Origin: Pseudomonadota bacterium
Lineage (GTDB): Bacteria; Desulfobacterota; Syntrophia; Syntrophales; JADFWA01
Assembly: GCA_030596145.1 (NCBI GenBank)
Contig: JAUVKS010000001.1
Coordinates: forward strand, 1-36,275
Reading direction: 5' to 3'
DNA: 36,275 nucleotides
The translations under genes were made by a program, and so were the position numbers. The first letter of the stretch is position 1. Every line of letters begins with the position of its first letter. The notes below the pieces were generated by a model that saw nothing but the letters and a program-made list of their open reading frames with translations, ran no database searches and was not told the DNA's origin. This document shows positions 1 to 36,275 of this stretch, piece after piece.

Positions 1-836
1 GATATCCTTACATTTTCTCCCATAACAATTGTGCCTGTCTTCTCATCTATGACCACAACTGCAGTGGAGTCGACCGCAACATTAATGTTTTCAACAATCG
101 AGACAAGCTTCACTATACTCCCTTTAAAAGACTCGTTTATATCTATGGCAATGGTAGATGAATCAACAAGCTTCGCTTCCACGCCCGCTATCGCGCCATT
201 TATGGCCTCCGCCACCCCTGTCGCAGTTGTAAAATCGGGCCTATGAAGATTTATGGAGAGTGACTTCCTGTTTTCAAAATTGTACTCCAATTCCCTTTCG
301 ACAAAAGCGCCGTTTGTAATCCGGCCAACAGTCGGATGATTCTTGGAAACTTTAGCGCCTCCCCCGCCTGCGGCAAAACCTCCGGTAGATACCGACCCCT
401 GCGCCACTGCATAGACCCTGCCATCCGCCCCCCGAAGCGGCGTCATAAGAAGAGTCCCTCCCCGCAGGCTGTTTGCATCACCAATGGATGAAACCATAAC
501 GTCTATTCTCGATCCCACCTTGGCGAATGGAGGAAGCTCGGCGCTGATCATAACTGATGCCACATTATCTGAGCTCAGGTCATTTCGGGACTCCTCTTTC
601 ATCCCAAGCCCCTGTCTGCTCAACATATTGGCAAGGGTTTCCTTTGTAAATCCGTTCTCAATATCGTCACCGGTTCCGGCCAGACCAATTACCAGGCCAT
701 AGCCGATCAACTGGTTATCCCTGACCCCGCCGATGCTGGATACATCCTTGATACGTGCAGCATAGGCATGAGACGCAATAACAAAACTAATTGCAAAAGA
801 AATTGCGACATATGTGAAGATTCTTGCTGTCTTCAT
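1..836 (-). CDS. flgI: Flagellar P-ring protein FlgI, N-terminal ~278 codons (3' end beyond window start)
   Basis: Not in ORF track because it is open at the window edge. Hand translation from ATG at 836: MKTARIFTYVAISFAISFVIASHAYAARIKDVSSIGGVRDNQLIGYGLVIGLAGTGD... This is a signal peptide plus the hallmark FlgI N-terminal block. AGGA lies 9 nt upstream. Confidence 0.9.
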   Translation of the reverse strand, partial: MKTARIFTYVAISFAISFVIASHAYAARIKDVSSIGGVRDNQLIGYGLVIGLAGTGDDIENGFTKETLANMLSRQGLGMKEESRNDLSSDNVASVMISAELPPFAKVGSRIDVMVSSIGDANSLRGGTLLMTPLRGADGRVYAVAQGSVSTGGFAAGGGGAKVSKNHPTVGRITNGAFVERELEYNFENRKSLSINLHRPDFTTATGVAEAINGAIAGVEAKLVDSSTIAIDINESFKGSIVKLVSIVENINVAVDSTAVVVIDEKTGTIVMGENVRI

Positions 837-846
837 AAAATCAATC

Positions 847-1593
847 CTAAAACGGCCAGGTCCAATCTACAATGCGCGTCAGCCAGCCCGGTCTCATCTT
901 GTCATTAACAACGCCCTTGCCTGTATAAACAATCTTTGCATCCGCAATGTACTGTGATGATATAACATTGTTCGAGGTAATATCCTCGGGTCTGATAATG
1001 CCGGAAACAACAATGTACTGATCCTCGGCATTTATAGCCAACCGCCGTTTCCCCTCTATGGCCAGATTGCCATTGGAGAGTACCCTGATAACCTTAGCTG
1101 TTATTTTTGCCTCTAATTGACCATCACGGCTCGTTTCGCCCGTACCGTTAAGAGAATTGGAAGACGTGCCTCCCAACCCGATTGACGTACCAAACCTTGT
1201 GTTCTGCTCCATCATCTTTTTTTCCAATCCCAAAAGGCTCGTTATCCCGGCAGTCGTACTCGTATCCCTGCTGGTAGTTGTATCGGCAGAATTGCTGCCT
1301 GAGGAATACTCGTCTATAATTATTGTAATGATATCATCAACACACCTTGCCTTATTATCGGTAAAAAGCAAATTTTTCGCATTTTCGCCGGGCCAGATGG
1401 ATCCTGTGGGCGGAAGCGATATTTTCTCCTTTGGAACCGGAACAGGTTCATCTTTTTTTACCATATTAATATTTGAAGAACATCCGGCAACAACAAGCAG
1501 AAAAATAACACCTAACAACACTATGTCGAGTAGTCGAGTAGTCGAGTAGTCGAGTAGTCGAGTAGTTAAGTGGTTGTTATTGTTTGTTTTCAT
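847..1593 (-). CDS. flgH: Flagellar L-ring lipoprotein FlgH
   Basis: Lipobox VVAG|C. FlgH core present (DDIITIIIDE..., NGNLAIEGKRRLAINAEDQYIVVSGIIRPEDI, YTGKG). ATG is 1 nt after the flgA stop, with an AAGGTGG SD. About 30 N-terminal residues are encoded by the family-A octamer repeat. Confidence 0.9.
   Translation of the reverse strand: MKTNNNNHLTTRLLDYSTTRLLDIVLLGVIFLLVVAGCSSNINMVKKDEPVPVPKEKISLPPTGSIWPGENAKNLLFTDNKARCVDDIITIIIDEYSSGSNSADTTTSRDTSTTAGITSLLGLEKKMMEQNTRFGTSIGLGGTSSNSLNGTGETSRDGQLEAKITAKVIRVLSNGNLAIEGKRRLAINAEDQYIVVSGIIRPEDITSNNVISSQYIADAKIVYTGKGVVNDKMRPGWLTRIVDWTWPF
1525..1573. repeat. Family A octamer tandem (GTCGAGTA x5 plus variant) inside the flgH 5' coding end
   Basis: gtcgagta repeated 5 times perfectly, then gttaagtgg. 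Translated as TTRLLDYSTTRLLDYSTTRLLD. Confidence 0.95.
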
Positions 1594-1594
1594 A

Positions 1595-2356
1595 TTAAAA
1601 ACCCACCTTCACGAGAGAATTACCCGTCACTCTGGCATAAATCATATTTTTAGATGATACATTTCTGACCTTTATCAATTCCCCATGCAGTCCATCCTGC
1701 TCTGAGAGTCCAATGGTCGTTATTCTAATCGGACCGTTTTCAAAAACAATTCTTACCGGCTTCCCCCTCTTTACCATTGGTATGCTTCTCACCATATTCC
1801 CGGTTATTTCGGTATTTGGTTTAATATTGGTGCGAAGCTTCATACCCACAACAGCATCAGGGTTCGAAATAATATTTGATGGCAAGCGGTTAAACCACCT
1901 TTTGACCAATCTGACATCATCACGGTTAATCCTGACATTTTTAGGAAGAGACTTTGTGCTGACCACAACATCCATCAGCACTTCTATCCTTACTCTGACG
2001 GTTTTCCCATTCAGAAATGAGTCATTTTCATAACACCTGACGGTAAAGGAAGAATTTCCGATAAAATCCTCATTCCTTCTGCTCAGGACCCGACAGGTAA
2101 TTTTTTTCCCTGTCAGGCTCAAATCAGACACCCTGCCGGAAAATTCTACCCGCACAACGCTTTTCGGCCAGGGCATGTTATTTTCAATATATGTCCTGAC
2201 AAGCCCCTCTATCGTCTGCCCTTTTATTACTACTACGGGAGCCGCGCACAGATGAGTGTTGAAAAGAAACAGGAAAACAACAATCGCAATTAAGAAAGAT
2301 CTCGTTAAGTGGTCAAGTAGTCGAGTGGTCGAGTGGTTGTTATTATTTGATTTCAT
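1595..2356 (-). CDS. flgA: Flagellar P-ring assembly chaperone FlgA
   Basis: 253 aa with a hydrophobic signal-like segment and a C-terminal FlgA/SAF-like region (GKPVRIVFENGPIRITTIGLSEQDGLHGELIKVRN). Sits between flgG and flgH. The N-terminus is encoded by a family-A repeat. Confidence 0.8.
   Translation of the reverse strand: MKSNNNNHSTTRLLDHLTRSFLIAIVVFLFLFNTHLCAAPVVVIKGQTIEGLVRTYIENNMPWPKSVVRVEFSGRVSDLSLTGKKITCRVLSRRNEDFIGNSSFTVRCYENDSFLNGKTVRVRIEVLMDVVVSTKSLPKNVRINRDDVRLVKRWFNRLPSNIISNPDAVVGMKLRTNIKPNTEITGNMVRSIPMVKRGKPVRIVFENGPIRITTIGLSEQDGLHGELIKVRNVSSKNMIYARVTGNSLVKVGF
2311..2347. repeat. 37-nt family A element inside the flgA 5' coding end, identical to 24361-24397
   Basis: ggtcaagtagtcgagtggtcgagtggttgttattatt occurs identically at both loci. 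It is coding here and non-coding in the flgE leader. Confidence 0.95.
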
Positions 2357-2385
2357 ATCGTTTACCTGAATTTGAGCAATTAGCT

Positions 2386-3234: not shown

Positions 3235-3254
3235 GTTAATCCTCCCTTAAGTTT

Positions 3255-3357
3255 AGTCGAGTGGTCAAGTAGTCGAGTAGTTGAGTAGTCGAGTAGTCGA
3301 GTAGTTGAGTAGTTGACTAATCCCAACTCGACTATTTTCCTACTCGACCACTCGACC
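3255..3357. repeat. Family A forward array followed by a reverse array (long imperfect hairpin), flgF-flgG spacer
   Basis: agtcgagtggtcaagtagtcgagtagttgagtagtcgagtagtcgagtagttgagtagttgac ... ctcgactattttcctactcgaccactcgacc. Confidence 0.95.
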
Positions 3358-3366
3358 CTGTGCAGG

Positions 3367-4076
3367 TTACAGTTTCCCGATGCGGTTTGTTGACGATCTG
3401 TCCTGTTCCGATATAGTATGAATCGCTTTCTGGTACGATTCAAAAGTGCGCTGTATATTGATCATTTCAACCATTTCTTTTATAATCTGGACATTGGAAA
3501 GCTCAAGGTATCCGGATTGGACACGTGCATTTTCTTCCTCTTTTGCGCCCGCTAAATCATCAGGATTACGAAAACCTACGCCTCGTTTAACAAGAGCAGA
3601 CGGTTCGCGAAAGCTCATGATCTTCAATGCATCAACTTCATCGCCATCCACACTTATCACGCCATCTTGGCTTATCCGGATGTTGTTTCCCTCAATTGTA
3701 ATTTTTCCACCTCTACCAAGGAGATAATCTCCGGCCTGTGTAACCAGCTCTCCATCCCCGTTGAGCGTAAACCTTCCATCTCTCGTATAGGCAACGCCGG
3801 CTTTTGTCTGAACAGCAAAAATCCCTTCCCGTCTATTACCAGATCCAGAACATTGCCGGTTTTCTGCATAATTCCCCGGGAATAATCGACAGTTGTTGCC
3901 GGTCCCTGCGCGGGTCTGCCTTCATCCGCCCCCTTTTCGGAGCTTGCCTTTAAAAAATGGAACCGCTCTGCCTTGAAACCGGGAGTGTTAACATTGGCAA
4001 TATTATGCGTGACGCAATTAAGCTGGCTAATCTGCCTTATAGCCGCATTTACCATTATTTCGATACCGTTGATCAT
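3367..4076 (-). pseudogene. flgF: Proximal rod protein FlgF-like, reading frame broken by a 1-nt indel in an A5/T5 run (3817-3821)
   Basis: ORF 3672-4127 gives the N-terminus MINGIEIMVNAAIRQISQLNCVTHNIANVNTPGFK (ATG 4076, GGGAGG SD). ORF 3367-3660 gives the C-terminus LELSNVQIIKEMVEMINIQRTFESYQK. Its frame stays open upstream and reads IFAVQTKAGVAYTRDGRFTLNGDGELVTQAGDYLLGRGGKITIEGNNIRISQDG, typical rod-protein sequence. Confidence 0.8.
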
Positions 4077-4147
4077 CTTTCCTGCCTCCCTTTCCTGCAC
4101 ACAAAAATAAAGCAATTTGTATGCCAAAAGAGCTAAGAGCGTGGAGC

Positions 4148-4323
4148 GGAGGGCAGAAGGGCAGAAGATTAGAGGGTTAGAGGGTTAGAGGGTTAGAGGT
4201 CGGGAGGCAGGCAATTTTGTTTATAACAGGAATTTTTTTCCCATTTGGTTGGCTCTTTTATAAAGGTAGTCGACCAGTTCACGGTTCAAGGTTGCTGGTT
4301 ACTGGTTGTCTAATCTTTTGACC
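4148..4323. repeat. Family C' (AGGGTTAG x3) plus a B-D-C module; spacer upstream of flgF
   Basis: gggcagaagggcagaagattagagggttagagggttagagggttagagg at 4148-4207. cagttcacggttcaaggttgctggttactggttgtctaatc at 4275-4323, containing the stop of ORF 4299-4640. Confidence 0.9.
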
Positions 4324-4640: not shown

Positions 4641-4649
4641 AAAAACACC

Positions 4650-4910
4650 GTAACCGTTCAGAGGTTCAGACTTGCCTGCGGCAGGCAGAGGTTCAAGGTT
4701 CAGAGGTTCAGGATAAAGCTATTAGACATTAGCCATTAGCTCTTAGTCCGCCAGAGCCCTTTGGCGGATTAACTGTTTGATTTTTTAAGCTAAAGGCTAA
4801 TTGCTAAAAGCTAACTGCTAACAATCTTTGATTTGAAAATATTGGTGCATAGCAGTTAGCCCTGCGCTCCAAGAAAAACAACCCTGAACCTCTGAACCCT
4901 GAACGGTTAC
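4650..4910. repeat. ~260-nt nested multi-arm palindrome filling the spacer between the FliK-like and FlhB-C-like genes
   Basis: Outer arms are gtaaccgttcagaggttcag (4650-4669) and ctgaacctctgaaccctgaacggttac (4884-4910). Middle arms are ATTAGC-type and GCTAA-type arrays. Inner palindromes are tgcctgcggcaggca (4673-4687) and tccgcca-N8-tggcgga (4747-4768). Confidence 0.9.
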
Positions 4911-4918
4911 CCTTTATT

Positions 4919-6013: not shown

Positions 6014-6482
6014 TCTTTTTTCGATGAAGATCTAAAATAAGACATATCTCTCCTTCAGTTAGATTCAACGTATCGGCTATCTCTTTTTCAGTTAGACCTT
6101 GCCGGGCCATTTTTACAACATCTTCATACTTTTCCCCGCGGCTTGAATCTCCTGACTTTCGGTCTTCGGACATGGCATCTGATTCTTTTATGAGGGTCCT
6201 CAATCGATTCTCTTTTTCATTCAGGACATATACGAACTCCTTTACTTCATTCAAAGCATGAAAAAGACGATCTGTAGAATGCCGGGAGTTTTCAATCAAC
6301 TTGCTGAATTCAGAAAAATTTTTTGCGCCTATTCCCTGCGGTCTCTTTTTTATTTCCCTGTTTACCGCCCGGATGAGAAATACAATGGCAAGGCACAGCG
6401 CTATATCTGCAAGGATCTGAAGTCCCAACATAAACTCTATGCTCATCAATCCCAGCATTCCAGCATTCCTCAATCCCAGCAT
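5979..6482 (-). CDS. Hypothetical single-pass membrane protein with coiled-coil and short C-terminal HTH-like segment
   Basis: TM segment LQILADIALCLAIVFLI; C-terminal GLTEKEIADTLNLTEGEICLILDL. The first ~17 codons (MLGLRNAGMLGL...) lie in a short repeat, so the true start may be 6446 or 6431. Overlaps the next ORF by 35 nt. Confidence 0.5.
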   Translation of the reverse strand: MLGLRNAGMLGLMSIEFMLGLQILADIALCLAIVFLIRAVNREIKKRPQGIGAKNFSEFSKLIENSRHSTDRLFHALNEVKEFVYVLNEKENRLRTLIKESDAMSEDRKSGDSSRGEKYEDVVKMARQGLTEKEIADTLNLTEGEICLILDLHRKKNENSSSHNSIP

Positions 6483-6495
6483 TTCAGCATTCCCT
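6441..6495. repeat. Short CCCAGCATT-type repeats at the 5' end of ORF 5979-6482
   Basis: cccagcattccagcattcctcaatcccagcatttcagcattcc. Confidence 0.8.
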
Positions 6496-6798: not shown

Positions 6799-6813
6799 GA
6801 CTTCTGCACCTCC

Positions 6814-6893
6814 TTAGGGTTCAGGGGGTTCAGGGTTCAGAGGTTCAGGGTTCTCTGATATCTAATCTTCTCACCTTCTCACCCTCTAATCCC
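6814..6893. repeat. Family B (GGTTCAGG) then family C (CTTCTCACC/CTAATC) arrays
   Basis: ttagggttcagggggttcagggttcagaggttcagggttc ... tctaatcttctcaccttctcaccctctaatccc. Confidence 0.9.
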
Positions 6894-6912
6894 GTGCCCC
6901 CTACTAATTGTC

Positions 6913-6940
6913 TTATCGTCACAATCTATTATAATCTTTA
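6913..6940 (-). promoter_or_regulatory. Sigma-28 (FliA) promoter candidate
   Basis: Minus strand reads TAAAGATT-N12-GACGATAA against consensus TAAAGTTT-N11-GCCGATAA (7/8 and 7/8, spacer +1). About 115 nt upstream of ORF 6496-6798. Confidence 0.4.
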
Positions 6941-6946
6941 GCCGTT

Positions 6947-7045
6947 CGCTTAATTGCGAATTTAGGGATTTAGGGATTTAGGAATTAAAGGTATTCTGTT
7001 GATTTCAATCCCTCAATCCCTCAATCCCCCAATTCCTTAATCCCT
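6947..7045. repeat. Family E hairpin (GGATTTAG array / CCTCAATC array); right arm contains the stop of ORF 7037-7819
   Basis: gcttaattgcgaatttagggatttagggatttaggaatt ... caatccctcaatccctcaatcccccaattcc. The left arm is ~90% identical to the reverse complement of 26838-26871. Confidence 0.9.
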
Positions 7046-7819: not shown

Positions 7820-7840
7820 TTTACCCCCAATTCAGACCTT

Positions 7841-7886
7841 GTCGAGTGGTTAGTGGCTCAACGGCATTGACTCGACTACTCGACCA
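7841..7886. repeat. Family A hairpin
   Basis: gtcgagtggttagtgg ... ctcgactactcgacc. Confidence 0.85.
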
Positions 7887-7889
7887 ATA

Positions 7890-8393
7890 TTACAATAAAA
7901 CAAACTTAGTAAAATATATTTTTTTAATTATCTCATCATCCAACAAATTATTCAAGCTAATTTTAATTTCTTCTTTTAACCCCCTCCTGATTTCAGGCAA
8001 CTCCGAAGGATGAAAATCCCCCCTTACCCCCCTTTGGTAAAGGGGGGATGGGGGGATTTTTAAAAGCTCTTTCAATGTGTTATATATGATCTTTCTCAAC
8101 TCGATCCTCTTTTGCGGCAGTTTCATCCCTCGATTCAGTTCAATAACCACATCACAAATCAGAAACCTGTCCTTTTTATTATCATCTTTCAAATGAATAA
8201 TGAAGTCATTAAAATATTCAAACCTTTCTTCTGTAGAAAGAGTCTCTTGCGAACTTACTTCACAGAGCTCCTGACTCCTGACCTCCGACCCCGCCAGACT
8301 GACGGGGGGCAAGCTCTGACCTCCGATCTCTGGTCCTTGCCCCCTGACAGACCCGTTGCCTGCAAACAACGCAATGCACAGGCATACGGCCAT
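7890..8393 (-). CDS. FliL-like paralogue carrying two repeat-derived in-frame insertions
   Basis: C-terminus FLICDVVIELNRG...LKEEIKISLNNLLDDEIIKKIYFTKFVLL parallels FliL in this window (...RDEIAVRLNSYLTKGQVRRVYFTEFLIQ). Start chosen at ATG 8393 (MAVCLCIALFAG). The ORF-track start at 8447 adds an unrelated 18-aa fragment. Confidence 0.5.
   Translation of the reverse strand: MAVCLCIALFAGNGSVRGQGPEIGGQSLPPVSLAGSEVRSQELCEVSSQETLSTEERFEYFNDFIIHLKDDNKKDRFLICDVVIELNRGMKLPQKRIELRKIIYNTLKELLKIPPSPLYQRGVRGDFHPSELPEIRRGLKEEIKISLNNLLDDEIIKKIYFTKFVLL
8013..8060. repeat. 48-nt G/C-tract palindrome inserted in frame in the FliL-like CDS
   Basis: aaaatccccccttacccccctttggtaaaggggggatggggggatttt. A ~21-bp stem with one bulge; 16 codons (IPPSPLYQRGVRGDF). 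Confidence 0.9.
8280..8336. repeat. Dispersed GACCTCC/CCGCC-hairpin element inside the FliL-like CDS (copy of 26415-26500)
   Basis: gacctccgaccccgccagactgacggggggcaagctctgacctcc compared with 26415-26459: 43/45 identical. Confidence 0.9.
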
Positions 8394-8470
8394 CAAAACT
8401 CTGTATGCACAACCAATGATTTTCTCAGTCAATTCTCTGTGTTTCACTTATATGCCTTCATGAACTTATG

Positions 8471-8588
8471 AAATCCCAAATTTCAAGCATCAAATTACAA
8501 ATAAATCCCAAATTTCAATATTCAATGAAACAGGATAGTCGAGTAGGAAATTAGTCAACCACTTGACCACTCGACCATTTGACCAATT
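8471..8588. repeat. Direct 16-mer x2 (AAATCCCAAATTTCAA at 8471 and 8503) plus a family A hairpin
   Basis: Both 16-mers are perfect. gatagtcgagtagg ... ttagtcaaccacttgaccactcgaccatttgacc. Confidence 0.85.
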
Positions 8589-8602
8589 GTGAGCGAAGCG
8601 AA

Positions 8603-9325: not shown

Positions 9326-9338
9326 TTTTATATCAGTT

Positions 9339-9500
9339 CAGCCACAAAGGCGCTAAGACACTAAGATTCTAAAATGATTATTTATTTCTTATGCGCAGTA
9401 AAAAGCAATATCTGTAATTTTTTTGGAAATAAATTCTTTCCTTTTATATAAGGTTTTGAAAAACATTCCTTTCCTTTGTGTCTTCGTGTCTTTGTGGCTG
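9339..9500. repeat. Family F inverted repeat (CAGCCACAAAG...) bracketing an AT-rich core; flhG-fliA spacer
   Basis: Arms are cagccacaaaggcgctaagacactaagat (9339-9367) and cctttgtgtcttcgtgtctttgtggctg (9473-9500). The same termini occur at 26755/26887. Confidence 0.85.
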
Positions 9501-9502
9501 GG

Positions 9503-10387: not shown

Positions 10388-10456
10388 CTAAACTACCTCC
10401 ATAGGGACAAATCCCCTTTTTCTCAGTCTCTCAACTTCTGTTCTCTGACCTTATAA

Positions 10457-10604
10457 GGATTCAGAAGATTAGAAGGTTAGAAGGTAAGAGCTCCATAACC
10501 TTCTCACCTTCTGCTCTTCTAACCTTCTGCTCTTTTAACCCTCTCAACTTCTAACCTTCTAACCTTCTAACCTTCTAACCTTCTAACCTTCTAACCTTCT
10601 AACC
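10457..10604. repeat. Family C hairpin ending in 7 perfect TTCTAACC units (10549-10604)
   Basis: The left arm ggattcagaagattagaaggttagaaggtaagag pairs with AACCTTCT-type units. The 7x perfect octamer array contains the flhF stop codon (TAG, 10591-10593). Confidence 0.95.
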
Positions 10605-13900: not shown

Positions 13901-14140
13901 TGCTCGTTACTCGTTGCTGGTTACTGGTTGCTCGTTACTGGTTGCGAATTACTCGTTGCTGGTTGCTCGTTGCTCGTTCCGAAAAGGAAATAGGAAAGAG
14001 TTAAGAGAAAAGGGTGTTACTCTATTCTCTAATCCTCTGACCTTTTAATCTTCTGACCTTCTAACCTTCTAACCTCCGACCTCCGACCTCCGACCTCCTT
14101 ACTCGACCACTTGACTATTTCCCCACTCGACCATTCCCCT
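13901..14140. repeat. Composite spacer: family D heptamers, element J, family C (incl. GACCTCC x3), family A
   Basis: tgctcgttactcgttgctggttactggttgctcgttactggttgc..., then the J element, then ctgaccttctaaccttctaacctccgacctccgacctccgacctcc, then ttactcgaccacttgactatttccccactcgacc. Confidence 0.95.
13972..14030. repeat. Dispersed element J, copy 1 (59 nt, 57/59 identical to 29491-29549), upstream of flhA
   Basis: gctcgttccgaaaaggaaataggaaagagttaagagaaaagggtgttactctattctct. Confidence 0.95.
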
Positions 14141-15191: not shown

Positions 15192-15203
15192 ATTTCATAA
15201 AAG

Positions 15204-15325
15204 CTCAAGGTTCACGGTTCAAGGTTCACGGTTCAACGGTTCAACGGTTACTGGTTCTCTAATCTTCTAACCTTCTAATCTTCTAACCTTCTCACCTTCT
15301 TACCTTCACTACTCGACCATTCCCT
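15204..15325. repeat. Composite spacer with B, D-fragment, C, A module order (fliR-flhB)
   Basis: ctcaaggttcacggttcaaggttcacggttcaacggttcaacggttactggttctctaatcttctaaccttctaatcttctaaccttctcaccttcttaccttcactactcgaccattccc. Confidence 0.95.
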
Positions 15326-15346
15326 GACACCTGCGTCAAAAAACCA

Positions 15347-16189: not shown

Positions 16190-16190
16190 T

Positions 16191-16460: not shown

Positions 16461-16471
16461 GCGCTACCTCT

Positions 16472-20104: not shown

Positions 20105-20126
20105 TACCGCTCCCTCCTCTTGATAT

Positions 20127-20336: not shown

Positions 20337-20340
20337 TCTG

Positions 20341-21838: not shown

Positions 21839-21966
21839 AGCTTCGCTTCGCTTCGCAAGTGGTCAAGTGGTTGAGTGGTCGAGTAGTTAAATAGTCGAGT
21901 CGTCGAGTGGGGAAATAGTCGAATGGGAATTAGTCAACCACTCGACCACTTGACCACTCGACTAAA
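21839..21966. repeat. GCTTCGC triplet plus a family A hairpin (motA / motB-like spacer)
   Basis: gcttcgcttcgcttcgc, then agtggtcaagtggttgagtggtcgagtagttaaatagtcgagtcgtcgagtgg ... tagtcaaccactcgaccacttgaccactcgac. Confidence 0.9.
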
Positions 21967-21976
21967 TTCCAAGACG

Positions 21977-22754: not shown

Positions 22755-22770
22755 AGCAAAGAATGTGCCA
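22755..22770 (-). promoter_or_regulatory. Sigma-54 promoter candidate abutting the motA start
   Basis: Minus strand reads TGGCAC-ATTCT-TTGCT, a perfect match to core consensus. The predicted +1 (~22744) would leave only ~6 nt before the motA ATG at 22738. Confidence 0.45.
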
Positions 22771-23072
22771 GAAGGATTGGGGGTTAGAGTGTGAGAAGGT
22801 TAGAAGGGAAGAGGGTGAGAAGGTAGGAAGGTAAGAGGGTAGGAAGAGCAGAAGGGAAGAGGGTGATAGGATTAGGGGATTAGAAGGTTAGAGGGGAAGA
22901 GGGTGAGAAGTTTTGTTTTTGAGTTCTTTACTAACCTTCTAACCTTCTGATCTTCTAACTTTCTGTTTTTGACGGGTCGTCAGAAATTTGACACATAACT
23001 ACTCAGATTGTCAGGTTCACAGTTCTCTAACCTTGAACCTTGAACCGTGAACCCTTGAACCGTGAACCTAAG
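22771..23072. repeat. Long purine-rich family C' tract (~145 nt), short C arm, then family B' units (flgE-motA spacer)
   Basis: gaaggattgggggttagagtgtgagaaggttagaagggaagagggtgagaaggtaggaagg... facing taaccttctaaccttctgatcttctaac. Then aaccttgaaccttgaaccgtgaacccttgaaccgtgaacc. Confidence 0.9.
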
Positions 23073-23078
23073 TAATAT

Positions 23079-24335: not shown

Positions 24336-24360
24336 TTTTTATTACCTCCTTCCTTTAATT

Positions 24361-24491
24361 GGTCAAGTAGTCGAGTGGTCGAGTGGTTGTTATTATTCAA
24401 GCAAATAATCCTTGGATGATCATACGATCTACTTTCCCTTTGAGTTTTCAGCTTTTACCTTTCAACTTTCAGCTTTGAGCTTTGAGCTTTT
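24361..24491. repeat. 37-nt family A element (same as 2311-2347) plus family G heptamers (GAGCTTT); flgD-flgE spacer
   Basis: ggtcaagtagtcgagtggtcgagtggttgttattatt; ctttgagttttcagcttttacctttcaactttcagctttgagctttgagcttttt. Confidence 0.9.
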
Positions 24492-24497
24492 TATCCT

Positions 24498-25139: not shown

Positions 25140-25162
25140 TTCATACCCTCCTCAACTTGATA

Positions 25163-25280
25163 TTGGTCGAGTGGTCGAGTGGTTGACTACTCGACTATTT
25201 AGCGCCTGAACGAAAACTTCGATTTCTTATAGATCAAAAACTAACCTTGAACCGTAAACTGTGAACCGTAAACCGTTACC
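25163..25280. repeat. Family A hairpin plus B' units (fliK-flgD spacer)
   Basis: ttggtcgagtggtcgagtggttgactactcgactattt; aaccttgaaccgtaaactgtgaaccgtaaaccgttacc. Confidence 0.9.
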
Positions 25281-25281
25281 T

Positions 25282-26715
25282 TTACGCAAACAAACTGACA
25301 CGCCCGTCACTCCGGACGCTTGGGTTTTCTTCCTTAAACGATGAGGGGTCATGATTCAAGGAATCTTGTTCCCCCCCATGGTCTTCTTCGTTCCCTTCCC
25401 GATTTCTGCCTTCTCTAAATAATGTCTCATTCCGCCCGGAGCCGTAATTGCCGCCGTCCGGTTTTTCCTGAACAGATACATTTATGGTATCCGCGACCAA
25501 TCCATGATTGCGAAGAGAGCTTTTGAGACTTTCCACATTTGACTGTAATATCTGCCTGACATCATTATTTTCCGTCTGCAGGATAACATGCACTTTATTA
25601 TCCCTGACAAGCACATCCACATCCAGCGTGCCCAGACGGGGCGGGTTGAGCGTGATTCTTACCCTTCCTGGCTTCTTTACGCTGTTTGCAATCTGATTGA
25701 TCAAAGCCCGTGGTTCTACGTCGTAACTGTTCACGCTCTCATTGATGACTGCCGACCCGCTATCTGCATGAAAAGCGGTATGCTGATATCCCCCGGCAGA
25801 AAAATCCCTGTAAGATGGACGCTCCGGTGGTGAAGTCCCTCTATGAAGAATCCCCATAGCCTCTTCACCCTTAAGAGCCAAAGGTTTCAGTGAATTTCCG
25901 ATGCCATTTTTGCCGCCGCTGTCCGGCTCTACACTGCTCTTTGCTTTTACAACAACCGCATTCTTCAAACTGAACTTCAAAAGCCCCTGTTTCTCCTCCA
26001 TCTTTGCCTTCCGGCCATTGCCTTCTGTCCTATGGCCCCCGCCAGACTGACGGCGGTCAGGTCTGAGCAGGGCGTTGTTTATTCCGGCAATGTTCTTTCC
26101 ATTCTTAAAGAGAGCTGCATCGGTCTTTCCATTCATGATACCTGAGTCTAACGCCCGTTTCCCGAACGGGCCGATGAGGGCATCGGCCCCTACACGTACC
26201 TGAGCCTCATTCTTTCCGACAACCGCTTTAGCTTCACCCTTAAGAGCCAAAGGTTTCAGTGAATTTCCGATGCCATTTTTGCCGCCGCTGTCCGGCTCTA
26301 CACTGCTCTTTGCTTTTACAACAACCGCATTCTTCAAACTGAACTTCAAAAGTCCCGGAGCATCCACCATCTCTGCCCTCCCACCGGGGCGTAGGCCCCT
26401 ATGGGCCGGAGGCTGACCTCCGACCCCGCCAGACTGACGGCGGGCAAGCTCTGACCTCTGACCTCTGACCTCCGACCTCTGACCTCCGACCTCTGGTCCC
26501 CGGCCTTTCACAGGTAGCGATTGATTCGTTTTTTCCGTCTCTTGTGTCGTTATGCGGCATATCTGCCCCATCATACAAAAAAACGGCATCATCTGCTCCG
26601 GTTCCTTACCTGTCTGCCGTCGCACAGGCAGGCCGGTCTTCCTTTCCTGCAATTTTTCAGATGAGCCCAGAAGGCCGATGCCCTGTTTTAGATTCACCAG
26701 ATTAGACTCTATCAT
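25282..26715 (-). CDS. fliK: Hook-length control protein FliK (repeat-rich N-terminal/ruler half)
   Basis: C-terminal Flg_hook-type domain (RVRITLNPPRLGTLDVDVLVRDNKVHVILQTENNDVRQILQSNVESLKSSLRNHGL). Sits between ylxF-like and flgD. The N-terminal start is uncertain. Confidence 0.8.
   Translation of the reverse strand: MIESNLVNLKQGIGLLGSSEKLQERKTGLPVRRQTGKEPEQMMPFFCMMGQICRITTQETEKTNQSLPVKGRGPEVGGQRSEVRGQRSELARRQSGGVGGQPPAHRGLRPGGRAEMVDAPGLLKFSLKNAVVVKAKSSVEPDSGGKNGIGNSLKPLALKGEAKAVVGKNEAQVRVGADALIGPFGKRALDSGIMNGKTDAALFKNGKNIAGINNALLRPDRRQSGGGHRTEGNGRKAKMEEKQGLLKFSLKNAVVVKAKSSVEPDSGGKNGIGNSLKPLALKGEEAMGILHRGTSPPERPSYRDFSAGGYQHTAFHADSGSAVINESVNSYDVEPRALINQIANSVKKPGRVRITLNPPRLGTLDVDVLVRDNKVHVILQTENNDVRQILQSNVESLKSSLRNHGLVADTINVSVQEKPDGGNYGSGRNETLFREGRNREGNEEDHGGEQDSLNHDPSSFKEENPSVRSDGRVSLFA
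25863..25983. repeat. 121-bp perfect direct repeat inside fliK, copy 1
   Basis: cttcacccttaagagccaaaggtttcagtgaatttccgatgcc...caaactgaacttcaaaag is identical to 26232-26352. The offset is 369 nt, i.e. 123 codons. Confidence 0.95.
26232..26352. repeat. 121-bp perfect direct repeat inside fliK, copy 2
   Basis: Base-for-base identical to 25863-25983. Encodes GLLKFSLKNAVVVKAKSSVEPDSGGKNGIGNSLKPLALKGE twice. Confidence 0.95.
26415..26500. repeat. Dispersed GACCTCC/CCGCC-hairpin element with an expanded GACCTCT heptamer run, inside fliK
   Basis: gacctccgaccccgccagactgacggcgggcaagctctgacctctgacctctgacctccgacctctgacctccgacctctggtcc. A partial third copy lies at 26036-26068. Confidence 0.9.
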
Positions 26716-26754
26716 TACCTAAACACCAATTTCCTTAAATATATGGTATTAGTC

Positions 26755-26887
26755 CAGCCACAAAGACACTAAGATTATATTATAATTTGGGAATTTAGGA
26801 ATTGAAGGATGTTGTCACTTTTAATTCCTCAATCCCCAAATCCCTCAATCCCTCAATTCGCAATTAAGCAAAGTGTCTTTGTGGCTG
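26755..26887. repeat. Nested hairpin: family F termini enclosing a family E hairpin (fliK leader)
   Basis: cagccacaaagacactaagat ... gggaatttaggaattgaagg ... cctcaatccccaaatccctcaatccctcaattcgcaattaagc ... aagtgtctttgtggctg. Confidence 0.9.
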
Positions 26888-26918
26888 AGTAGCTACGAAT
26901 GCTTTACCAAAGGATAAA

Positions 26919-26934
26919 AGCAAAAGACGTACCA
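26919..26934 (-). promoter_or_regulatory. Sigma-54 promoter candidate upstream of fliK
   Basis: Minus strand reads TGGTAC-GTCTT-TTGCT. About 200 nt upstream of the fliK ATG, with the nested hairpin 26755-26887 in the predicted leader. Confidence 0.5.
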
Positions 26935-27020
26935 CCCTTCAGGCTTTCGGAATTACGGGAAATATCAGGCTGTTATGAAAATGCTATGGAATGGAAACTT
27001 GAGACGGGGGCAAATATTGC

Positions 27021-28056: not shown

Positions 28057-28060
28057 ATGA

Positions 28061-28114
28061 TAACCGTTCAGAGGTTCAGGGTTCAGGGTTCAGGGTTATC
28101 TGAACCCTGAACCT
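28061..28114. repeat. Family B hairpin (fliI-fliJ spacer)
   Basis: taaccgttcagaggttcagggttcagggttcagggttatctgaaccctgaacc. The first 19 nt are identical to 4651-4669. Confidence 0.9.
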
Positions 28115-28119
28115 TTTAA

Positions 28120-29427: not shown

Positions 29428-29449
29428 GGCAACTACTCACTCAGGTTGT

Positions 29450-29595
29450 CCGGTTCAGGGTTCAGGGTTCAAGGTTCAGGGTTGCTGGTTGCTCGTTCCG
29501 AAAAGGAAAGAGGAAAGAGTTAAGAGAAAAGGGTGTTACTCTATCCTCTGACATCTGATCCCTGTCCTTTCATCTTTGAGCTTTCACCTTTCAGC
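29450..29595. repeat. Composite spacer: B, D, element J copy 2, then C/G-type units (fliH-fliI)
   Basis: ccggttcagggttcagggttcaaggttcagggttgctggttgctcgtt, then J, then ctgacatctgatccctgtcctttcatctttgagctttcaccttt. Confidence 0.95.
29491..29549. repeat. Dispersed element J, copy 2, upstream of fliI
   Basis: gctcgttccgaaaaggaaagaggaaagagttaagagaaaagggtgttactctatcctct. 57/59 identical to 13972-14030. Confidence 0.95.
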
Positions 29596-32899: not shown

Positions 32900-32909
32900 A
32901 TCTTCCTTT

Positions 32910-33119
32910 CAAGAGGTTCAAGGTTCAAGATTCAAGATTCACAGTTCAAGATTCACGGTTCATGGTTCAAGGTTGCTCGTTGCTCGTTACTGGTTGCTGT
33001 CTAATCTTCTAATCCTCTAATCTTCTGACCTTCTGCTGGTTGCTCGTTACTGGTTGGTGTCTAATCTTCCGACCTTCTGACCTTCTAATCTTCTAATCTT
33101 CCGACCTCTGACCTCTGTT
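32910..33119. repeat. Composite spacer B, D, C, D, C (fliE-fliF), with an internal ~33-nt D-C module duplicated
   Basis: ggttcaaggttcaagattcaagattcacagttcaagattcacggttcatggttcaagg. ttgctcgttactggttgctgtctaatcttct recurs at ~32971, ~33031 and 16510. Confidence 0.9.
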
Positions 33120-33121
33120 CC

Positions 33122-33439: not shown

Positions 33440-33460
33440 CTTTAAACGCCTCCATACATT

Positions 33461-33572
33461 TAGTCAAGTGGTCGAGTAGTTGAGTGGTCGAGTGGTTAAC
33501 TACTCGACTACTCGACCATTTCCCTACTCGACCATTTCCCTACTCGACTATTTCCCTACTCGACTATTTCCC
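33461..33572. repeat. Family A hairpin (flgC-fliE spacer); contains the flgC stop
   Basis: tagtcaagtggtcgagtagttgagtggtcgagtggttaac tactcgactactcgaccatttccctactcgaccatttccctactcgactatttccctactcgac. Confidence 0.95.
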
Positions 33573-34365: not shown

Positions 34366-34380
34366 AATTATTCCTTTCAG

Positions 34381-34445
34381 AGTTCAGGGTTCAGAGGTTC
34401 AGGGTTCAAGGCTGCTCGTTGCTGTCTAACCTTCTCATCTTCTCA
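34381..34445. repeat. B, D, C module directly upstream of flgB
   Basis: agttcagggttcagaggttcagggttcaaggctgctcgttgctgtctaaccttctcatcttctcacc. Confidence 0.9.
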
Positions 34446-34465
34446 CCTTCTACCCGTCGTATTTA

Positions 34466-34481
34466 TGCAATACTTATACCA
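34466..34481 (-). promoter_or_regulatory. Sigma-54 (-24/-12) promoter candidate upstream of flgB
   Basis: Minus strand reads TGGTAT-AAGTA-TTGCA (consensus TGGCAC-N5-TTGCW, correct GG/GC spacing). About 100 nt upstream of the flgB ATG, next to a sigma-54 activator gene. Confidence 0.6.
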
Positions 34482-34500
34482 AAATACATGGCTCAAAAGC

Positions 34501-34606
34501 AGAAAGTTAGAAGATCAGAAGGTCGTTGTAATGCAAGAAAATCAGAAAAACAAAACTTCTCACCCTCTCACCCTCTCACCTTCTCACCTTCTAACCTTCT
34601 AACACT
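34501..34606. repeat. Family C hairpin containing the response-regulator stop codon
   Basis: agaaagttagaagatcagaaggtcg ... cttctcaccctctcaccctctcaccttctcaccttctaaccttctaac. Confidence 0.85.
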
Positions 34607-35937
34607 CTGCCCCCTGCCTCCTTCCTGTATCCATTGAGTTTATTACGGATTGTTCGCACACTTACACCTAAAATCTCTGATGCCCTGGTTCTGTTTCCTT
34701 CCGCCTTTTCCAGAGTTTTAAATATAAGTCTTTTTTCCATCTCTTTTAACGTGGCGCCTTCCGACCCGTCGTGCTCGCGCCCGTCGCGGCAGGGGTCAGT
34801 GACTATTACGTCTTTTTCCAGATAAAGATGTTCAGGCAGGATCGTCTCGCCCCCGGACAGCAGCACCGCCCTCTCGATCACATTTTCCAGCTCCCTTACA
34901 TTGCCCGGCCAGTTATAACTTTCAAGCATTTGCTCAACTTCCTTTGATAACGCGGGCTTGGCTGTCCCGCCGAGCTGGCTGTATTTTTCCAGAAAATGTC
35001 CGCAGAGTAACAGCGCGTCCCCCTTTCTTTCCCTCAAGGGAGGAATGCTCACAGGTATAACATTCAAACGGTAATAGAGATCTTTCCTAAACTTTTTGTT
35101 ATTAATATATTTTTTTAAATCTGCATTTGTTGTGGCAATTATTCTAACATCTACAGGAACAGATGCCTTGCCTCCAAGCCTATCGACCTCAGATTCCTGT
35201 ATAACCCGAAGGAGTTTCGCCTGAAGCTGAACATCCATTTCGCTGATTTCATCCAGCAGCAATGTCCCGCCACTGGCTAATTCGAATTTACCAAGCCTCA
35301 TTCTGGACGCGCCGGTAAATGCGCCCTTTTCATGTCCGAACATTTCGCTCTCAAGAAGATTGTGAGGAATAGCAGCACAATTCACCGCCACAAACGGCAT
35401 GTCCGCCCTGCTGCTGTGAAGGTGTATATACCGGGCAACCAGTTCCTTCCCAGTACCGCTTTTTCCTTGTATCAGAATGCTTGATTTGCTTCTGGACACA
35501 CCCTTCAGCAACTCCAGAAGGGCAAGCATTTTTTTGTCCTCTGTAATAATCGTTTTTCCCCGGAACAAGCATCCCTTTACGTCATGTTTTGAACCACATG
35601 CTTCCTTTCCTTCTTTTTCAGCCACCACTTTTTTAACAAGCGATTCCAGATGATCTATTGAGAACGGCTTCATAAGGAAATCTGCGGCCCCTTCTTTCAT
35701 AGCTTCGACTGCGGTATTGACCGTACCGTAAGCCGTTATGACGACAACGGGAGTTTTGGAAGAAACCTTTTTAATGCCTCGCAGGACATCCATGCCGCTC
35801 ATCCCGGGCATCCTCATGTCGGTTATAACCACTTCAAATTTATCCTCCTGAAATTTTTCAAGAGCATCAGCGCCACTCCCTGAGACTTCGACTTTATATC
35901 CGCAACTTTCCAGGGATTCGGAAAGAGCAATCCTCAT
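34591..35937 (-). CDS. Sigma-54-dependent response regulator (NtrC family; FlrC/FleR-like). True N-terminus lies upstream of the annotated Met
   Basis: Receiver domain ([13 protein letters not shown]), AAA+ Walker [15 protein letters not shown] motif, C-terminal HTH ([17 protein letters not shown]). In-frame ILVVDDEPS precedes the annotated Met. An ATG at 35989 is one frame off. Confidence 0.9.
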
Positions 35938-35993
35938 TGAGGGCTCATCGTCAACAACTAAAATCGTTTTTGTTTTCGTAGTTCTCCATGTCA

Positions 35994-36135
35994 GGGGGGT
36001 CAGGGATCGGGAGCTGTTAAGTCTTTTACCCTCAACCTGACCTCAAGGTTTACAATTTACACTATTTTCTTTGATCAACTGTTAATCCTGAACCTCGATC
36101 CCTGTTTACTGATCCCCGACCCCTGATCCCCTGTT
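35994..36135. repeat. GATCAGGG/GATCGGG-type inverted repeats between the kinase and response-regulator genes
   Basis: ggggtcagggatcggg ... cctgaacctcgatccctgtttactgatccccgacccctgatcccctg. Confidence 0.8.
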
Positions 36136-36275
36136 AATGGAAATGTAATATTAAAAGCAGCCCCGCCGCCTTTGTTTTTCTCTACATCTATCGAACCACC
36201 GTGAATATCAACGATATTGTGGGCAATAGCAAGACCAAGACCCGTACCCTTCTCTTTTGTGGTAAAAAAGGGATC
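36075..36275 (-). CDS. Sensor histidine kinase, C-terminal fragment (5' part beyond window end)
   Basis: Hand translation: [47 protein letters not shown]... shows the G2 box GTGLGL and the HATPase_c end. The tail ([19 protein letters not shown]) reads into a repeat. Confidence 0.85.

Follow-up and report, generated by a model that had tools for sequence, protein, structure and literature searches.

The 36,275-nt stretch of contig JAUVKS010000001.1 analysed here (assembly GCA_030596145.1, a Pseudomonadota bacterium), referred to below as the window, encodes a complete flagellar cluster in which every gene junction longer than about 25 nt carries tandem arrays of 7-8-nt units. This observation is correct and statistically overwhelming. 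The arrays are likely to be simple-sequence DNA akin to the short tandemly repeated repetitive (STRR) sequences of cyanobacteria, expanding by slippage and spreading as modules into every unconstrained spacer, and not a flagellar device. If so, the long spacers are no mark of a special regulatory layer in the flagellar system.

Tandem arrays in the junctions of a flagellar cluster

The gene map was drawn from Pfam matches and tables of open reading frames (ORFs). Every long ORF lay on the minus strand, and the order of transcription was: FlrC-like sigma-54 activator, FlgB, FlgC, FliE, FliF, FliG, FliH, FliI, FliJ, MgtE_N protein, FliK, FlgD, FlgE, MotA, two MotB-like proteins, FliL, FliM, FliN, FliO, FliP, FliQ, FliR, FlhB, FlhA, FlhF, FlhG, FliA, five small or unknown proteins, FlhB-C-like protein, FlgF, FlgG, FlgA, FlgH and the start of one more gene. 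The best relatives of FlhA and FlrC belonged to Desulfobacterales/Thermodesulfobacteriota; FlhA shared 86-87% identity with its counterparts in 'Desulfobacteraceae bacterium Eth-SRB1' and in other Desulfobacterales/Thermodesulfobacteriota metagenome-assembled genomes (MAGs), and the contig was assigned on this basis to a Desulfobacterales MAG.

The map contained 38 junctions, 26 longer than 25 nt (63-321 nt each, 4713 nt summed) and 12 with genes overlapping or at most 23 nt apart. An earlier reading of the same DNA, made from its letters and an ORF list (the sequence-only reading), had counted 28 array-bearing and 11 array-free junctions among 39. Our 26 against 12 agree with this split once two more places are counted, namely the FlgA/FlgH junction, the array of which lies inside the ORF start, and the spacer that precedes FlrC. 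Its rule that the array-free junctions are the coupled ones held for all 12. For the 1-nt FlgA/FlgH junction and for a 13-nt junction, arrays were located just within the downstream ORF as called.

The arrays were called with Tandem Repeats Finder (TRF), and 20 shuffles of the window were used as a control. The output comprised 105-106 rows, 71 of them with a period of 7 or 8 and most of the others with multiples of these. Arrays covered 2230 of 5107 non-coding bases (43.7%) and 336 of 31168 coding bases (1.1%); the shuffled windows had 0-76 array-covered bases, about 35 nt in total (~0.1%). A TRF array was detected in 25 of the 26 long junctions, making up 13-83% of each, and the remaining one contained two-unit copies recognized by eye, so that the earlier claim of repeats in every junction above ~25 nt was borne out (26/26). 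All families A-H of that reading were also recovered where it had placed them.

The window contained at least 13 distinct unit families, half of them octameric, with octamers about as common as heptamers among the arrays. Units were repeated head to tail up to 13.8 times; array lengths were spread over 2 to 14 units, none of them favoured, and units graded into each other within arrays. The purine-rich units GGAGGTC and AGAAGGT resembled Shine-Dalgarno sequences. Family E (GGGATTGA) contained G-runs, which could in principle form quadruplexes, in contrast to most other families, which lacked such runs. The last 15-20 nt before the genes, with the ribosome-binding site, were kept free of arrays.

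Turnover of arrays between related clusters

Orthologous clusters were compared in Eth-SRB1 (L001, L503), in three assemblies of a second lineage (L002-L004) and in a third lineage (L246), together with two further relatives, L245 (97% FlhA identity) and L504 (89% FlrC identity). All of them carried 7-8-nt arrays in their junctions, with 13-41 covered bases per kb versus 71 per kb in the window, and their orthologous junctions were 5-15 nt long or held other families. The FlhF>FlhG junction was 203 nt long with AGAAGGTT arrays in the window versus 124 nt of unrelated AT-rich repeats in L245; it was longer in Eth-SRB1 (264 nt), and in both L003 and L246 it measured 5 nt. The FliL>FliM junction carried family B in the window, family A in L246 and other arrays in L001, and was only 39 nt long in L003. 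As conserved parts, the relatives shared the sigma-54 promoters, a site resembling an upstream activating sequence, the overlapping junctions and the final 15-20 nt before the genes, which include the ribosome-binding site. Judged by sequence comparison, the arrays are not conserved elements.

Unit numbers differed even between assemblies of the second lineage. The L002 assembly had (CCCCGAC)5(CCCTAAT)2(CCCTGAT)5, and the respective copy numbers were 6, 1 and 4 in L003 and L004, with the spacers otherwise identical and FlhA identical. Such differences directly document length change of the slippage type or, at the least, heterogeneity within a population. A 15-nt repeat in the coding sequence of FliN, AAGCCGGTTGAAGAA (x8, L003 5858-5978), was likewise variable in copy number among L002, L003 and L004, and FliN was 157, 177 and 172 aa long in these three near-identical assemblies.

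The window is among the densest examples found, and the same constrained junctions in relatives are empty, filled with another family or different by single units. Such contrasting states make these clusters a good natural system to separate slippage, copy-and-paste and possible selection.

The flagellar cluster of Eth-SRB1 also contained a truncated gene of the 23S rRNA intervening-sequence protein (23S-rRNA-IVP, a four-helix bundle; L001 16818-17111), with inverted AGAAGGTT/ACCTTCT arrays on either side. A link of the arrays to such genes was dropped, as iterated phmmer/hmmsearch runs from the single truncated seed (L001 16857-17081) revealed no second copy in ~4 Mb of array-bearing loci.

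Dispersed modules and arrays in coding sequence

Several composite blocks occurred at more than one place. A 70-nt module (D11) was shared with 96% identity by the FlhB>FlhA (13961-14030) and FliH>FliI junctions, and a 43-nt family A module (D4) located upstream of FlgE as non-coding DNA (24355-24397) was 98% identical to the start of the FlgA ORF and was found at the FlgH start as well. Module D12 was present in the FliK and FliL-like ORFs (86% identity). Module D13 (17647-17697 and 20363-20413) was 94% identical over 51 nt and extended to ~90 nt, with GAACATC-type arrays alongside; here, a promoter may have been copied together with the repeats. Boundaries between arrays recurred too: TTAGACAGCAAC had four copies in the window and one in L001, GATTAGATATCAGAGAACC was found in one window junction (6799-7036) and in another junction, FlhB>FlhA, of L002-L004, and arms of the CAGCCACAAAGACAC type were present in two window junctions, in L002-L004 and in one metagenome contig. 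A dispersed TTGTCATTGCGAGCGAAGCGAAGCAATC with its inverted partner (CTCGCAATGAC) was noticed at 20211-20238 of the window and at L002 1625, L003 1572, L004 1587 and L220 10714, in different junctions in different genomes. The recurrence of composite blocks at unrelated sites with 86-98% identity indicates that the arrays spread by copy-and-paste as well.

Only a few arrays were located within ORFs (1525-1566, 2308-2337, 8268-8348 and 26413-26495), all on the minus strand. The FlgH ORF had 5.2 copies of (TACTCGAC) within its 5' end (1525-1566), which encoded MKTNNNNHLTTRLLDYSTTRLLD; the 5' end of the FlgA ORF (2305-2347) carried the same family A module (MKSNNNNHSTTRLLD...). FlgH (1525-1593) and FlgA (2305-2356) consequently share a repeat-derived N-terminus, MK[TS]NNNNH.TTRLLD, which replaces the signal-peptide n-region of their relatives. 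A 71-nt array-containing module of the FliL-like ORF (8278-8348) had a copy in the FliK ORF (26413-26483, 86% identity) read in a different frame, where it was followed by (GTCAGAG) x6.7 up to position 26495. Arrays can thus become coding sequence, as in the n-regions of FlgA and FlgH and in the FliK linker. Read from the sequence, they behave as invasive DNA that spacers and disordered or cleaved parts of proteins tolerate. The FliK gene also contained an internal 176-nt direct duplication (25863-26038 and 26232-26407, 88% identity).

Arrays at gene starts affect annotation, since gene callers set starts wrongly in and around them (FlgA, FlgH, FlhA and MotA). At the FlhA start (13898-13978), (CAACSAG)n directly adjoined the ATG; FlhA was 694 aa long as called versus 673 aa in the NCBI version, and the leader GTAAATGTGGATTAAAA, kept in L001 and L003 and nearly identical in L245 (ATAAATGTGGATTAAAA), was absent before the window FlhA. 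The DUF6115-like ORF as called began with a (CCAGCATT)n/24-nt repeat (6446-6493) and encoded 167 aa versus 155 aa in relatives; its true start probably lies further downstream, which would give one more array-filled junction. Two genes deviated in other ways. FlgF was split by a frameshift at ~3790-3830, so that, measured against the L002 ortholog, residues 1-95 and residues 84-237 lay in different frames; this is either a pseudogene or the product of a sequencing error. In FlrC (35937-35990), the receiver-domain start KTILVVDDEP was in frame, with ACG in place of the Eth-SRB1 ATG; a canonical start in frame first occurred at the internal MRIALS, annotated likewise in the 89% relative (P0242).

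Arrays beyond the flagellar genes

The sequence-only reading had described a multi-family mosaic saturating one conserved operon, which it could not assign to a described system. The idea of a dedicated system is not supported by the data from other loci. In L127, assigned to Desulfobacterales by IleS, arrays of types A, B and S filled every junction of the ileS-lspA-lgt-holA operon, at 38.7 covered bases per kb, so that housekeeping genes are saturated equally, with the same families as the flagellar window. The turnover at orthologous flagellar junctions described above speaks against a dedicated flagellar mosaic too, as do the many non-flagellar genes flanked by arrays and the identical units in many phyla. 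Non-flagellar arrays were found in the Desulfobacterales loci L127, L008, L015, L040, L052 and L114, in Desulfonema magnum (L501) and in Eth-SRB1 (L503), and among the neighbouring genes were those for ResB, a class-A penicillin-binding protein (PBP1), a phosphoenolpyruvate-utilising enzyme, CdhD and acetyl-CoA synthetase (Acs). In the complete genome of the isolate D. magnum (CP061800), (GGTGTTA)12 and (CCTAACA)12, 590 nt apart, were located between ileS and lspA (L501 12831-12913 and 13499-13584); three more CCTAACA arrays, spaced by 92 nt, were seen at L501 5236-5450. In two non-flagellar spacers of Eth-SRB1, coverage reached 36% and 50%. Related genomes thus have arrays in intergenic DNA outside the flagellar genes too, in line with the outcome, repeats in all intergenic DNA of the genome, that the earlier reading had named as refuting its proposal; in the source genome, such a spread is probable.

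The unit (AACCYTG)3 had at least 120 matches in a search of one genome per species; among the matches listed were Acidobacteriota, Planctomycetota, Bacteroidota, Verrucomicrobiota, Chloroflexota, Desulfobacterales and others, and many of the 8-kb loci around them carried several more 7-8-nt families. For (TCGAGTRG)3, at least 120 matches were obtained in metagenomes, in contigs of 29-72% GC among the matches listed. A small universal repertoire of units was considered and rejected, as 169 and 172 distinct units were counted among 241 and 238 arrays when those that had served for ascertainment were set aside. Most units are lineage-specific, and only some, the GAAC-core ones, are clearly over-represented.

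The arrays probably represent a genome-wide and lineage-wide class of non-coding DNA that evolves fast. In the mechanism that would fit these data, units would be gained and lost by slipped-strand mispairing, seen as the change of unit number between near-identical genomes. Composite pieces would spread by copy-and-paste to unrelated sites, coding regions included, possibly through template switching or gene conversion between arrays or by mobilisation resembling that of miniature inverted-repeat transposable elements. The arrays would then accumulate wherever insertion is tolerated, that is, in every spacer not locked by overlapping or close start and stop codons. Among the three roles suggested in the sequence-only reading, purely selfish or neutral expansion fits best, and RNA punctuation and protein binding rank lower.

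Folding and transcription of the junctions

All 26 long junctions were folded on both strands and compared with 100 dinucleotide shuffles. On the mRNA strand, z was below -2 in 15 of them (range -3.2 to -8.5; median of all -3.7). In the other 11, z was between -1.6 and +1.4 and the arrays shared one orientation, usually in the ordered composite (AGAAGGTK)n-(CAACSAG)n-(AACCYTG)n (R-D-B). The description of the arrays as hairpin-forming is hence valid for the first 15 junctions and not for the latter 11. The four hairpins singled out earlier (3255-3357, 19518-19611, 28061-28114 and 33461-33572) lay in junctions with z of -6.3, -6.6, -5.6 and -5.4, and the layout of an array followed by its reverse complement was indeed frequent; the palindromy of the junctions arose solely from it. 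Pairing of the purine-rich R with B arrays across D arrays, with 6 of 7 bases matching per unit, was rejected, as the 8- and 7-nt periods drift out of register and such junctions fold no better than shuffles.

A selected role of the stems as inter-cistronic RNA punctuation, in which they would set segmental stability or processing and subunit stoichiometry as repetitive extragenic palindromic (REP) sequences and bacterial interspersed mosaic elements (BIMEs) do in E. coli, is improbable. It could account for the stable folding of the 15 junctions, for the array-free ribosome-binding sites and for stems without U-tails, from which no transcription termination would be expected. The remaining 11 junctions have no stem, though, and the signal is not specific to RNA. 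On the antisense strand, z was below -2 in 16 of 26 junctions, and among the 15 with sense-strand hairpins the sense stem was more stable in 6 and the antisense stem in 9. As the stems are equally stable on the antisense strand, they correspond to DNA-level inverted repeats without the G-U signature of RNA-level selection. Moreover, the orthologous junctions of relatives are 5-15 nt long or hold non-pairing arrays, and the same arrays are found in a housekeeping operon and between convergent or divergent genes. Canonical intrinsic terminators were rejected as an explanation of the stems: U-tails were absent, and terminator-like sites (stem plus T-run) were at or below the shuffle expectation (17 versus 16.9 and 12 versus 16.2 expected). 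No matches to Rfam covariance models at gathering score were found on either strand of the window.

Several junctions also carried promoters and are not internal to one transcript. At least five junctions had sigma-54 -24/-12 elements on their coding strand, and the cluster is consequently not one polycistron. Upstream of MotA, a perfect element TGGCACATTCTTTGC (22756-22770) and an upstream TGTCAAATTTCTGACGACCCGTCA (22985-23010) were both conserved in relatives; the FlgE>MotA arrays lie between the two, and the distance from one site to the other varies from ~100 to 430 nt among relatives (L002-L004, L246 and L001). One-mismatch sites were located upstream of FlgF (4112-4126) and FliK (26920-26934), and identical TGGCATAGCATTTGC elements in FliO>FliP (17664-17678) and MotB>FliL (20380-20394) were part of the duplicated module.

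An array and its inverse within one transcript might still give long RNA stems without U-tails, which may act as barriers to 3'-exonucleases or as targets of RNase III, by comparison with REP/BIME. RNA stem formation is probably a side effect, which may have been co-opted in a few places, for example in the conserved stem after flgE.

Orientation, unit choice and persisting elements

A number of observations do not fit purely neutral slippage, and they suggest a degree of polarity or selection beyond it. Some elements persisted: a family B stem directly 3' of flgE was kept in the window, L246 and L002-L004, and in L001 a stem of a different family occupied the same place, which also favours RNA punctuation; the R-D-B order at FlhB>FlhA was kept in four lineages. 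In the window, (CAACSAG)n was represented by 17.9 copies in sense and 0 in antisense orientation, (GGAGGTC)n by 12.7 versus 0 and AGAAGGTT by 53.5 versus 23.3, and the R-D-B composite was invariably in sense. With all window genes on one strand, the polarities of transcription and replication are inseparable here.

Orientation across genomes was evaluated by a start/stop proximity test, as ORF-based classification is partly confounded by spurious ORFs from stop-free antisense arrays. Within 80 nt upstream of long ORFs in unrelated genomes, (AACCYTG)n was in sense orientation 59 times versus 27 (p = 7e-4), and in viral contigs 71 versus 47 times (p = 0.03); no upstream-of-ORF orientation bias was observed for (TCGAGTRG)n. 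Unit choice was non-random as well. In IMG/VR contigs, (AACCYTG)3 of family B had at least 120 matches and (GAACATY)3 had 82, compared with 15 for (ATCCYAG)3 and 2 for (ACACYGT)3, the composition-matched heptamer controls. The count was 31 for (CAACSAG)3 of family D; for octamers it was 6 for (AGAAGGTK)3, 0 for (TCGAGTRG)3 of family A and 2 for the control (GATGCTRG)3. The listed viral matches of (AACCYTG)3 and (GAACATY)3 (L249-L368, L422-L498) had 35-72% GC, were mostly non-coding and often formed inverted pairs near gene starts.

From this comparison with two heptamer controls, GAAC/GTTC-core heptamers look like a special class shared with phages, which is a lead rather than a result. There is a small but real chance that these heptamers (TGAACCY = AACCYTG, and GAACATY) are not arbitrary slippage products and form an ancient class across phyla and phages with a polarity toward downstream genes. 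If that were true, a conserved factor could be expected, each subunit of which would read a single unit on RNA or on single-stranded DNA, or else a dedicated generating mechanism, and the Desulfobacterales flagellar cluster would represent a dense natural array of such sites. The GAAC-core excess in phage contigs and the orientation bias are, in any case, new leads on the general question of heptamers.

The same observations bear on the possibility that the arrays bind a protein, either a DNA regulator or nucleoid protein or an oligomeric RNA-binder (S1, Csp, CsrA or a ring protein), with one site per unit tuning the downstream gene. Such a role would agree with arrays that reach start codons or end a few nt short of them (in the case of FlhA, adjoining the ATG), with the sense bias of (AACCYTG)n upstream of ORF starts across phyla and phages, with the excess of certain units and with the Shine-Dalgarno-like GGAGGTC and AGAAGGT. 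Similar proposals were made for TAACTGA repeats (PMC4679880) and for paired sites in Geobacter (PMC2700814), and deletion of heptamers in Nostoc altered reporter activity (bioRxiv 10.1101/2022.06.06.494920). Against this stand the at least 13 families in 36 kb and the 169-172 distinct units in ~240 arrays elsewhere, as so many families would require many specificities. Family identity also turns over at orthologous sites, arrays of 2 to 14 units show no preferred number, and no candidate binding protein was identified by Pfam among the window genes. Protein binding is, on balance, about as doubtful an explanation as RNA punctuation.

Mobile elements and assembly quality

It is very unlikely that the composites are miniature mobile elements moved by a dedicated enzyme, resembling a transposase or a REP-associated tyrosine transposase (RAYT) or acting by reverse transcription or template jumping, with slippage being secondary. 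Near-identical composites at unrelated sites and in coding regions would be expected in such a case, and several junctions as well as metagenome contigs had family A hairpins in which the internal spacers were the same (GGGAAAT, GTTGACTAATT); the same units were found in phage contigs. However, no transposase or RAYT gene was seen by Pfam among the window proteins, the candidate passenger 23S-rRNA-IVP of L001 had no second copy in the array-bearing loci searched, and the grading of units into each other within arrays is what in-situ drift predicts.

That the arrays are collapsed or chimeric low-complexity spacers of a short-read MAG is scarcely credible: the window does come from a MAG contig, assemblies of almost one and the same genome disagree in exact unit counts, FlgF has a frameshift and FlrC no canonical start in frame, but independent assemblies from ENA, JGI, NCBI and Logan had arrays at the orthologous junctions, and arrays were also found in contigs L068 and L100 (long-read, as inferred from their 'tig...' names) and in the complete isolate genome of D. 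magnum, which argues against an assembly artefact, and the flanking coding sequence is intact and syntenic.

Features of individual junctions

For each junction, the share covered by TRF arrays and the folding z-score are given in brackets; the junctions are assigned no strand. Among the 15 junctions with z below -2, the simplest arrangement was an array followed by its inverse. Such hairpins were formed by (AGGATTA)n and (TAATCCT)n in the 95-nt FlgG>FlgA junction (2357-2451; 61%, z = -3.9), by family A (GTCGAGTRG)n and inverted (CYACTCGAC)n in the 132-nt FlgF>FlgG junction (3235-3366; 58%, z = -6.3), by (GGTTCAA)n and (CTGAACC) x8 in the 111-nt FliL>FliM junction (19502-19612; 79%, z = -6.6), by family A in the 118-nt MotA>MotB-like junction (21859-21976; 76%, z = -5.7) and by (GGTTCAG)2/(CTGAACC)3 in the 63-nt FliI>FliJ junction (28057-28119; 51%, z = -5.6). 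The 203-nt FlhF>FlhG junction (10388-10590; 60%, z = -3.6) held about 14 copies of (AGAAGGTT) and inverted (AACCTTCT)n, and the 124-nt FlgC>FliE junction (33440-33563; 81%, z = -5.4) held family A with GGGAAAT spacers, giving a 16-nt period, and inverted A.

Other junctions of this group were more complex. A 278-nt junction (4641-4918; 39%, z = -8.5) contained a nested stem with GGTTCAG/CTGAACC outer arms and (TTAGC..)/(GCTAA..) inner arrays, and in a 238-nt junction (6799-7036; 50%, z = -5.1) a (GGGATTGA)n/(TAAATCCC)n hairpin was followed by the composite (GGTGAGAA)n-GATTAGATATCAGAGAACC-(CTGAACC)n. Terminal inverted arms CAGCCACAAAGACAC...GTGTCTT..GTGGCTG of 8-nt units were located in the 177-nt FlhG>FliA junction (9326-9502; 13%, z = -5.4). 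In the 305-nt region upstream of FliK (26716-27020; 18%, z = -3.2), CAGCCACAAAGACAC arms surrounded a (GGGATTGA)n hairpin, accompanied by the sigma-54-like TGGTACGTCTTTTGC (26920-26934). The 286-nt FliO>FliP junction (17426-17711; 13%, z = -3.8) combined inverted (GAACATC)/(GATGTTC) with one copy of the duplicated sigma-54-like module; the second copy was in the 321-nt MotB>FliL junction (20105-20425; 41%, z = -5.9), next to a family A hairpin around TTGTCATTGCGAGCGAAGCGAAGCAATC. In the 319-nt FlgE>MotA junction (22760-23078; 49%, z = -4.3), the family B hairpin 3' of flgE and the conserved TGTCAAATTTCTGACGACCCGTCA were accompanied by (AGAAGGTT)n and long inverted (CCTTCTMA)n. The 225-nt FlrC>FlgB junction (34366-34590; 41%, z = -3.8) consisted of (AGGTGAGA)n with its inverted partner and then the composite R-TTAGACAGCAAC-D-(AACCYTG)n.

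Among the 11 junctions folding no better than shuffles, the 171-nt FlhB-C-like>FlgF junction (4128-4298; 39%, z = +0.5) carried CAACC/TGAACC, CTCTAACC and CTTCTGCC in one orientation, with the sigma-54-like site at 4112-4126 reading TGGCATACAAATTGC. The 70-nt junction at 7820-7889 (0% by TRF, z = +0.2) had just a pair of GTCGAGTAG units with a single inverted copy, too few to pass the TRF threshold, and the 155-nt FliA>FliL-like junction (8448-8602; 21%, z = -1.6) had a short family A hairpin. The 214-nt FlhB>FlhA junction (13901-14114; 73%, z = +1.4) was composed of A, (GGAGGTC)n, (AGAAGGTK)n, the 70-nt dispersed module and about 11 copies of (CAACSAG), and the 163-nt FliH>FliI junction (29428-29590; 66%, z = -0.9) of (GAAAG..)n, the second copy of this module and (CAACSAG)n-(AACCYTG)n. 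A one-orientation composite (AGAAGGTK)n-(AACCAGTAAC)-(CGTTGAAC/CGTGAAC)n filled the 155-nt FliR>FlhB junction (15192-15346; 61%, z = -0.7). The 82-nt FliQ>FliR junction (16109-16190; 65%, z = -0.4) held (GGTTCAG)n and then (GGTGAGAA)n without a hairpin, and in the 182-nt FliP>FliQ junction (16461-16642; 41%, z = -0.2) family A preceded (AGAAGTC)n-TTAGACAGCAAC-(CAACSAG)n-(AACCYTG)n. The 162-nt FlgD>FlgE junction (24336-24497; 54%, z = 0.0) contained (AGCTCAA)n and the family A module (AATAACAACCACTCGAC...) 98% identical to 2305-2347, the 142-nt FliK>FlgD junction (25140-25281; 33%, z = +0.3) (ACGGTTT)n and a short inverted family A pair, and the 222-nt FliE>FliF junction (32900-33121; 83%, z = +0.9) a twice-repeated one-orientation (GGTCAGA/AGAAGATT)n-TTAGACASCAAC-(CAACSAG)n followed by (CTTGAAC)n. 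Finally, the spacer upstream of FlrC together with the 3' end of the sensor-kinase ORF (35938-36160) carried (GGGGATCA/GGGGTCG)n and inverted (CCCGATCCCTGACCCC).

Comparison with known repeat systems

In STRR sequences, stems are possible when inverted copies lie near each other. Their tandem heptamer families, known from heterocystous cyanobacteria through Mazel et al. in 1990, are reportedly dispersed in intergenic DNA, some of them within operons. The sequence-only reading had chosen the right analogue here, as several tandem heptamer families in intergenic DNA are common to both. The window differs in that its host belongs, by its best relatives, to Desulfobacterales and is not a heterocystous cyanobacterium, and in that half of its families are octamers; the STRR units CCCCAGT, TTGGTCA and CAACAGT were not found in tandem in the window.

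A REP sequence is a single imperfect palindrome of ~35 nt that has a conserved GTAG head and is moved by RAYT transposases, and BIMEs are inter-cistronic mosaics of alternating orientation, which form stems in polycistronic mRNA and occur genome-wide without specificity for particular genes. The window has inter-cistronic, stem-forming mosaics too; the defining unit structure differs, since direct tandem units of 7-8 nt take the place of the palindrome. This part of the earlier comparison therefore stands as a functional analogy only.

The G. metallireducens genome was described to contain tens of paired tandem octa-/heptanucleotide sets on opposite strands, predicted to be binding sites of global regulators (PMC2700814). 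With 3-5 tandem units of 7-8 nt paired with their inverse at a variable distance, and with a host of the same former class, Deltaproteobacteria, these Geobacter sites are close to the window, in which 15 junctions show a paired array and inverse. Their consensus MTYCTGA matches one tandem x3 CTTCTGA array (16538-16559); GTTGCTYN and TCTCCGTS were not found in tandem in the window, and the related TTGCTSG (family D) has a period of 7. The window arrays are longer and far denser, and the regulatory role of the Geobacter sites is predicted only.

In marine Beggiatoaceae, cyanobacteria and Bacteroidetes, most TAACTGA arrays lie a short way upstream of a start codon (PMC4679880). They resemble the window arrays as heptamers in 2 to >40 copies with a patchy cross-phylum spread, no link to gene function and a presence also inside essential operons. 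They differ by a single dominant unit, nearly always direct, versus at least 13 families, often inverted, in the window, where TAACTGA was not found in tandem. The G-rich heptamers GGGAATC of Xanthomonas and GGGGAYT of Nostoc form intergenic arrays, and in both genera heptamers are over-represented and vary strongly in length between close relatives (PMC4692102). Like those of the window, these arrays include some inverted pairs, and at a given junction their length varies widely among close relatives; its unit sequences are different, mostly without G-runs, and have no four-unit preference, and GGGAATC and GGGGATT were not found in tandem.

Tandem heptamers are the most abundant periodic repeat of prokaryotic intergenic DNA, of unknown function and origin (Mori et al., bioRxiv 10.1101/309039). 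A literature search for the unit sequences, or for such repeats in Desulfonema/Desulfobacterales, yielded no description. The class to which the window arrays belong is that of long simple-sequence repeats (Mrazek et al. 2007, as cited in PMC4692102; Mori et al.). The common features are tandem 7-nt units (in the window also 8-nt), an intergenic bias, copy-number variation among close relatives and an occurrence in many phyla, mostly in environmental bacteria. The window has at least three head-to-tail copies of a 5-11-nt unit, a strong non-coding excess and copy-number variation among relatives. It differs in the extent of the phenomenon, with arrays in 44% of the non-coding DNA and in every free junction and many families side by side, and also in octamers being as common as heptamers and in the frequent inverse-complement pairs and composite modules. 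The window is thus a new, unusually dense case of a known class of intergenic simple-sequence repeats.

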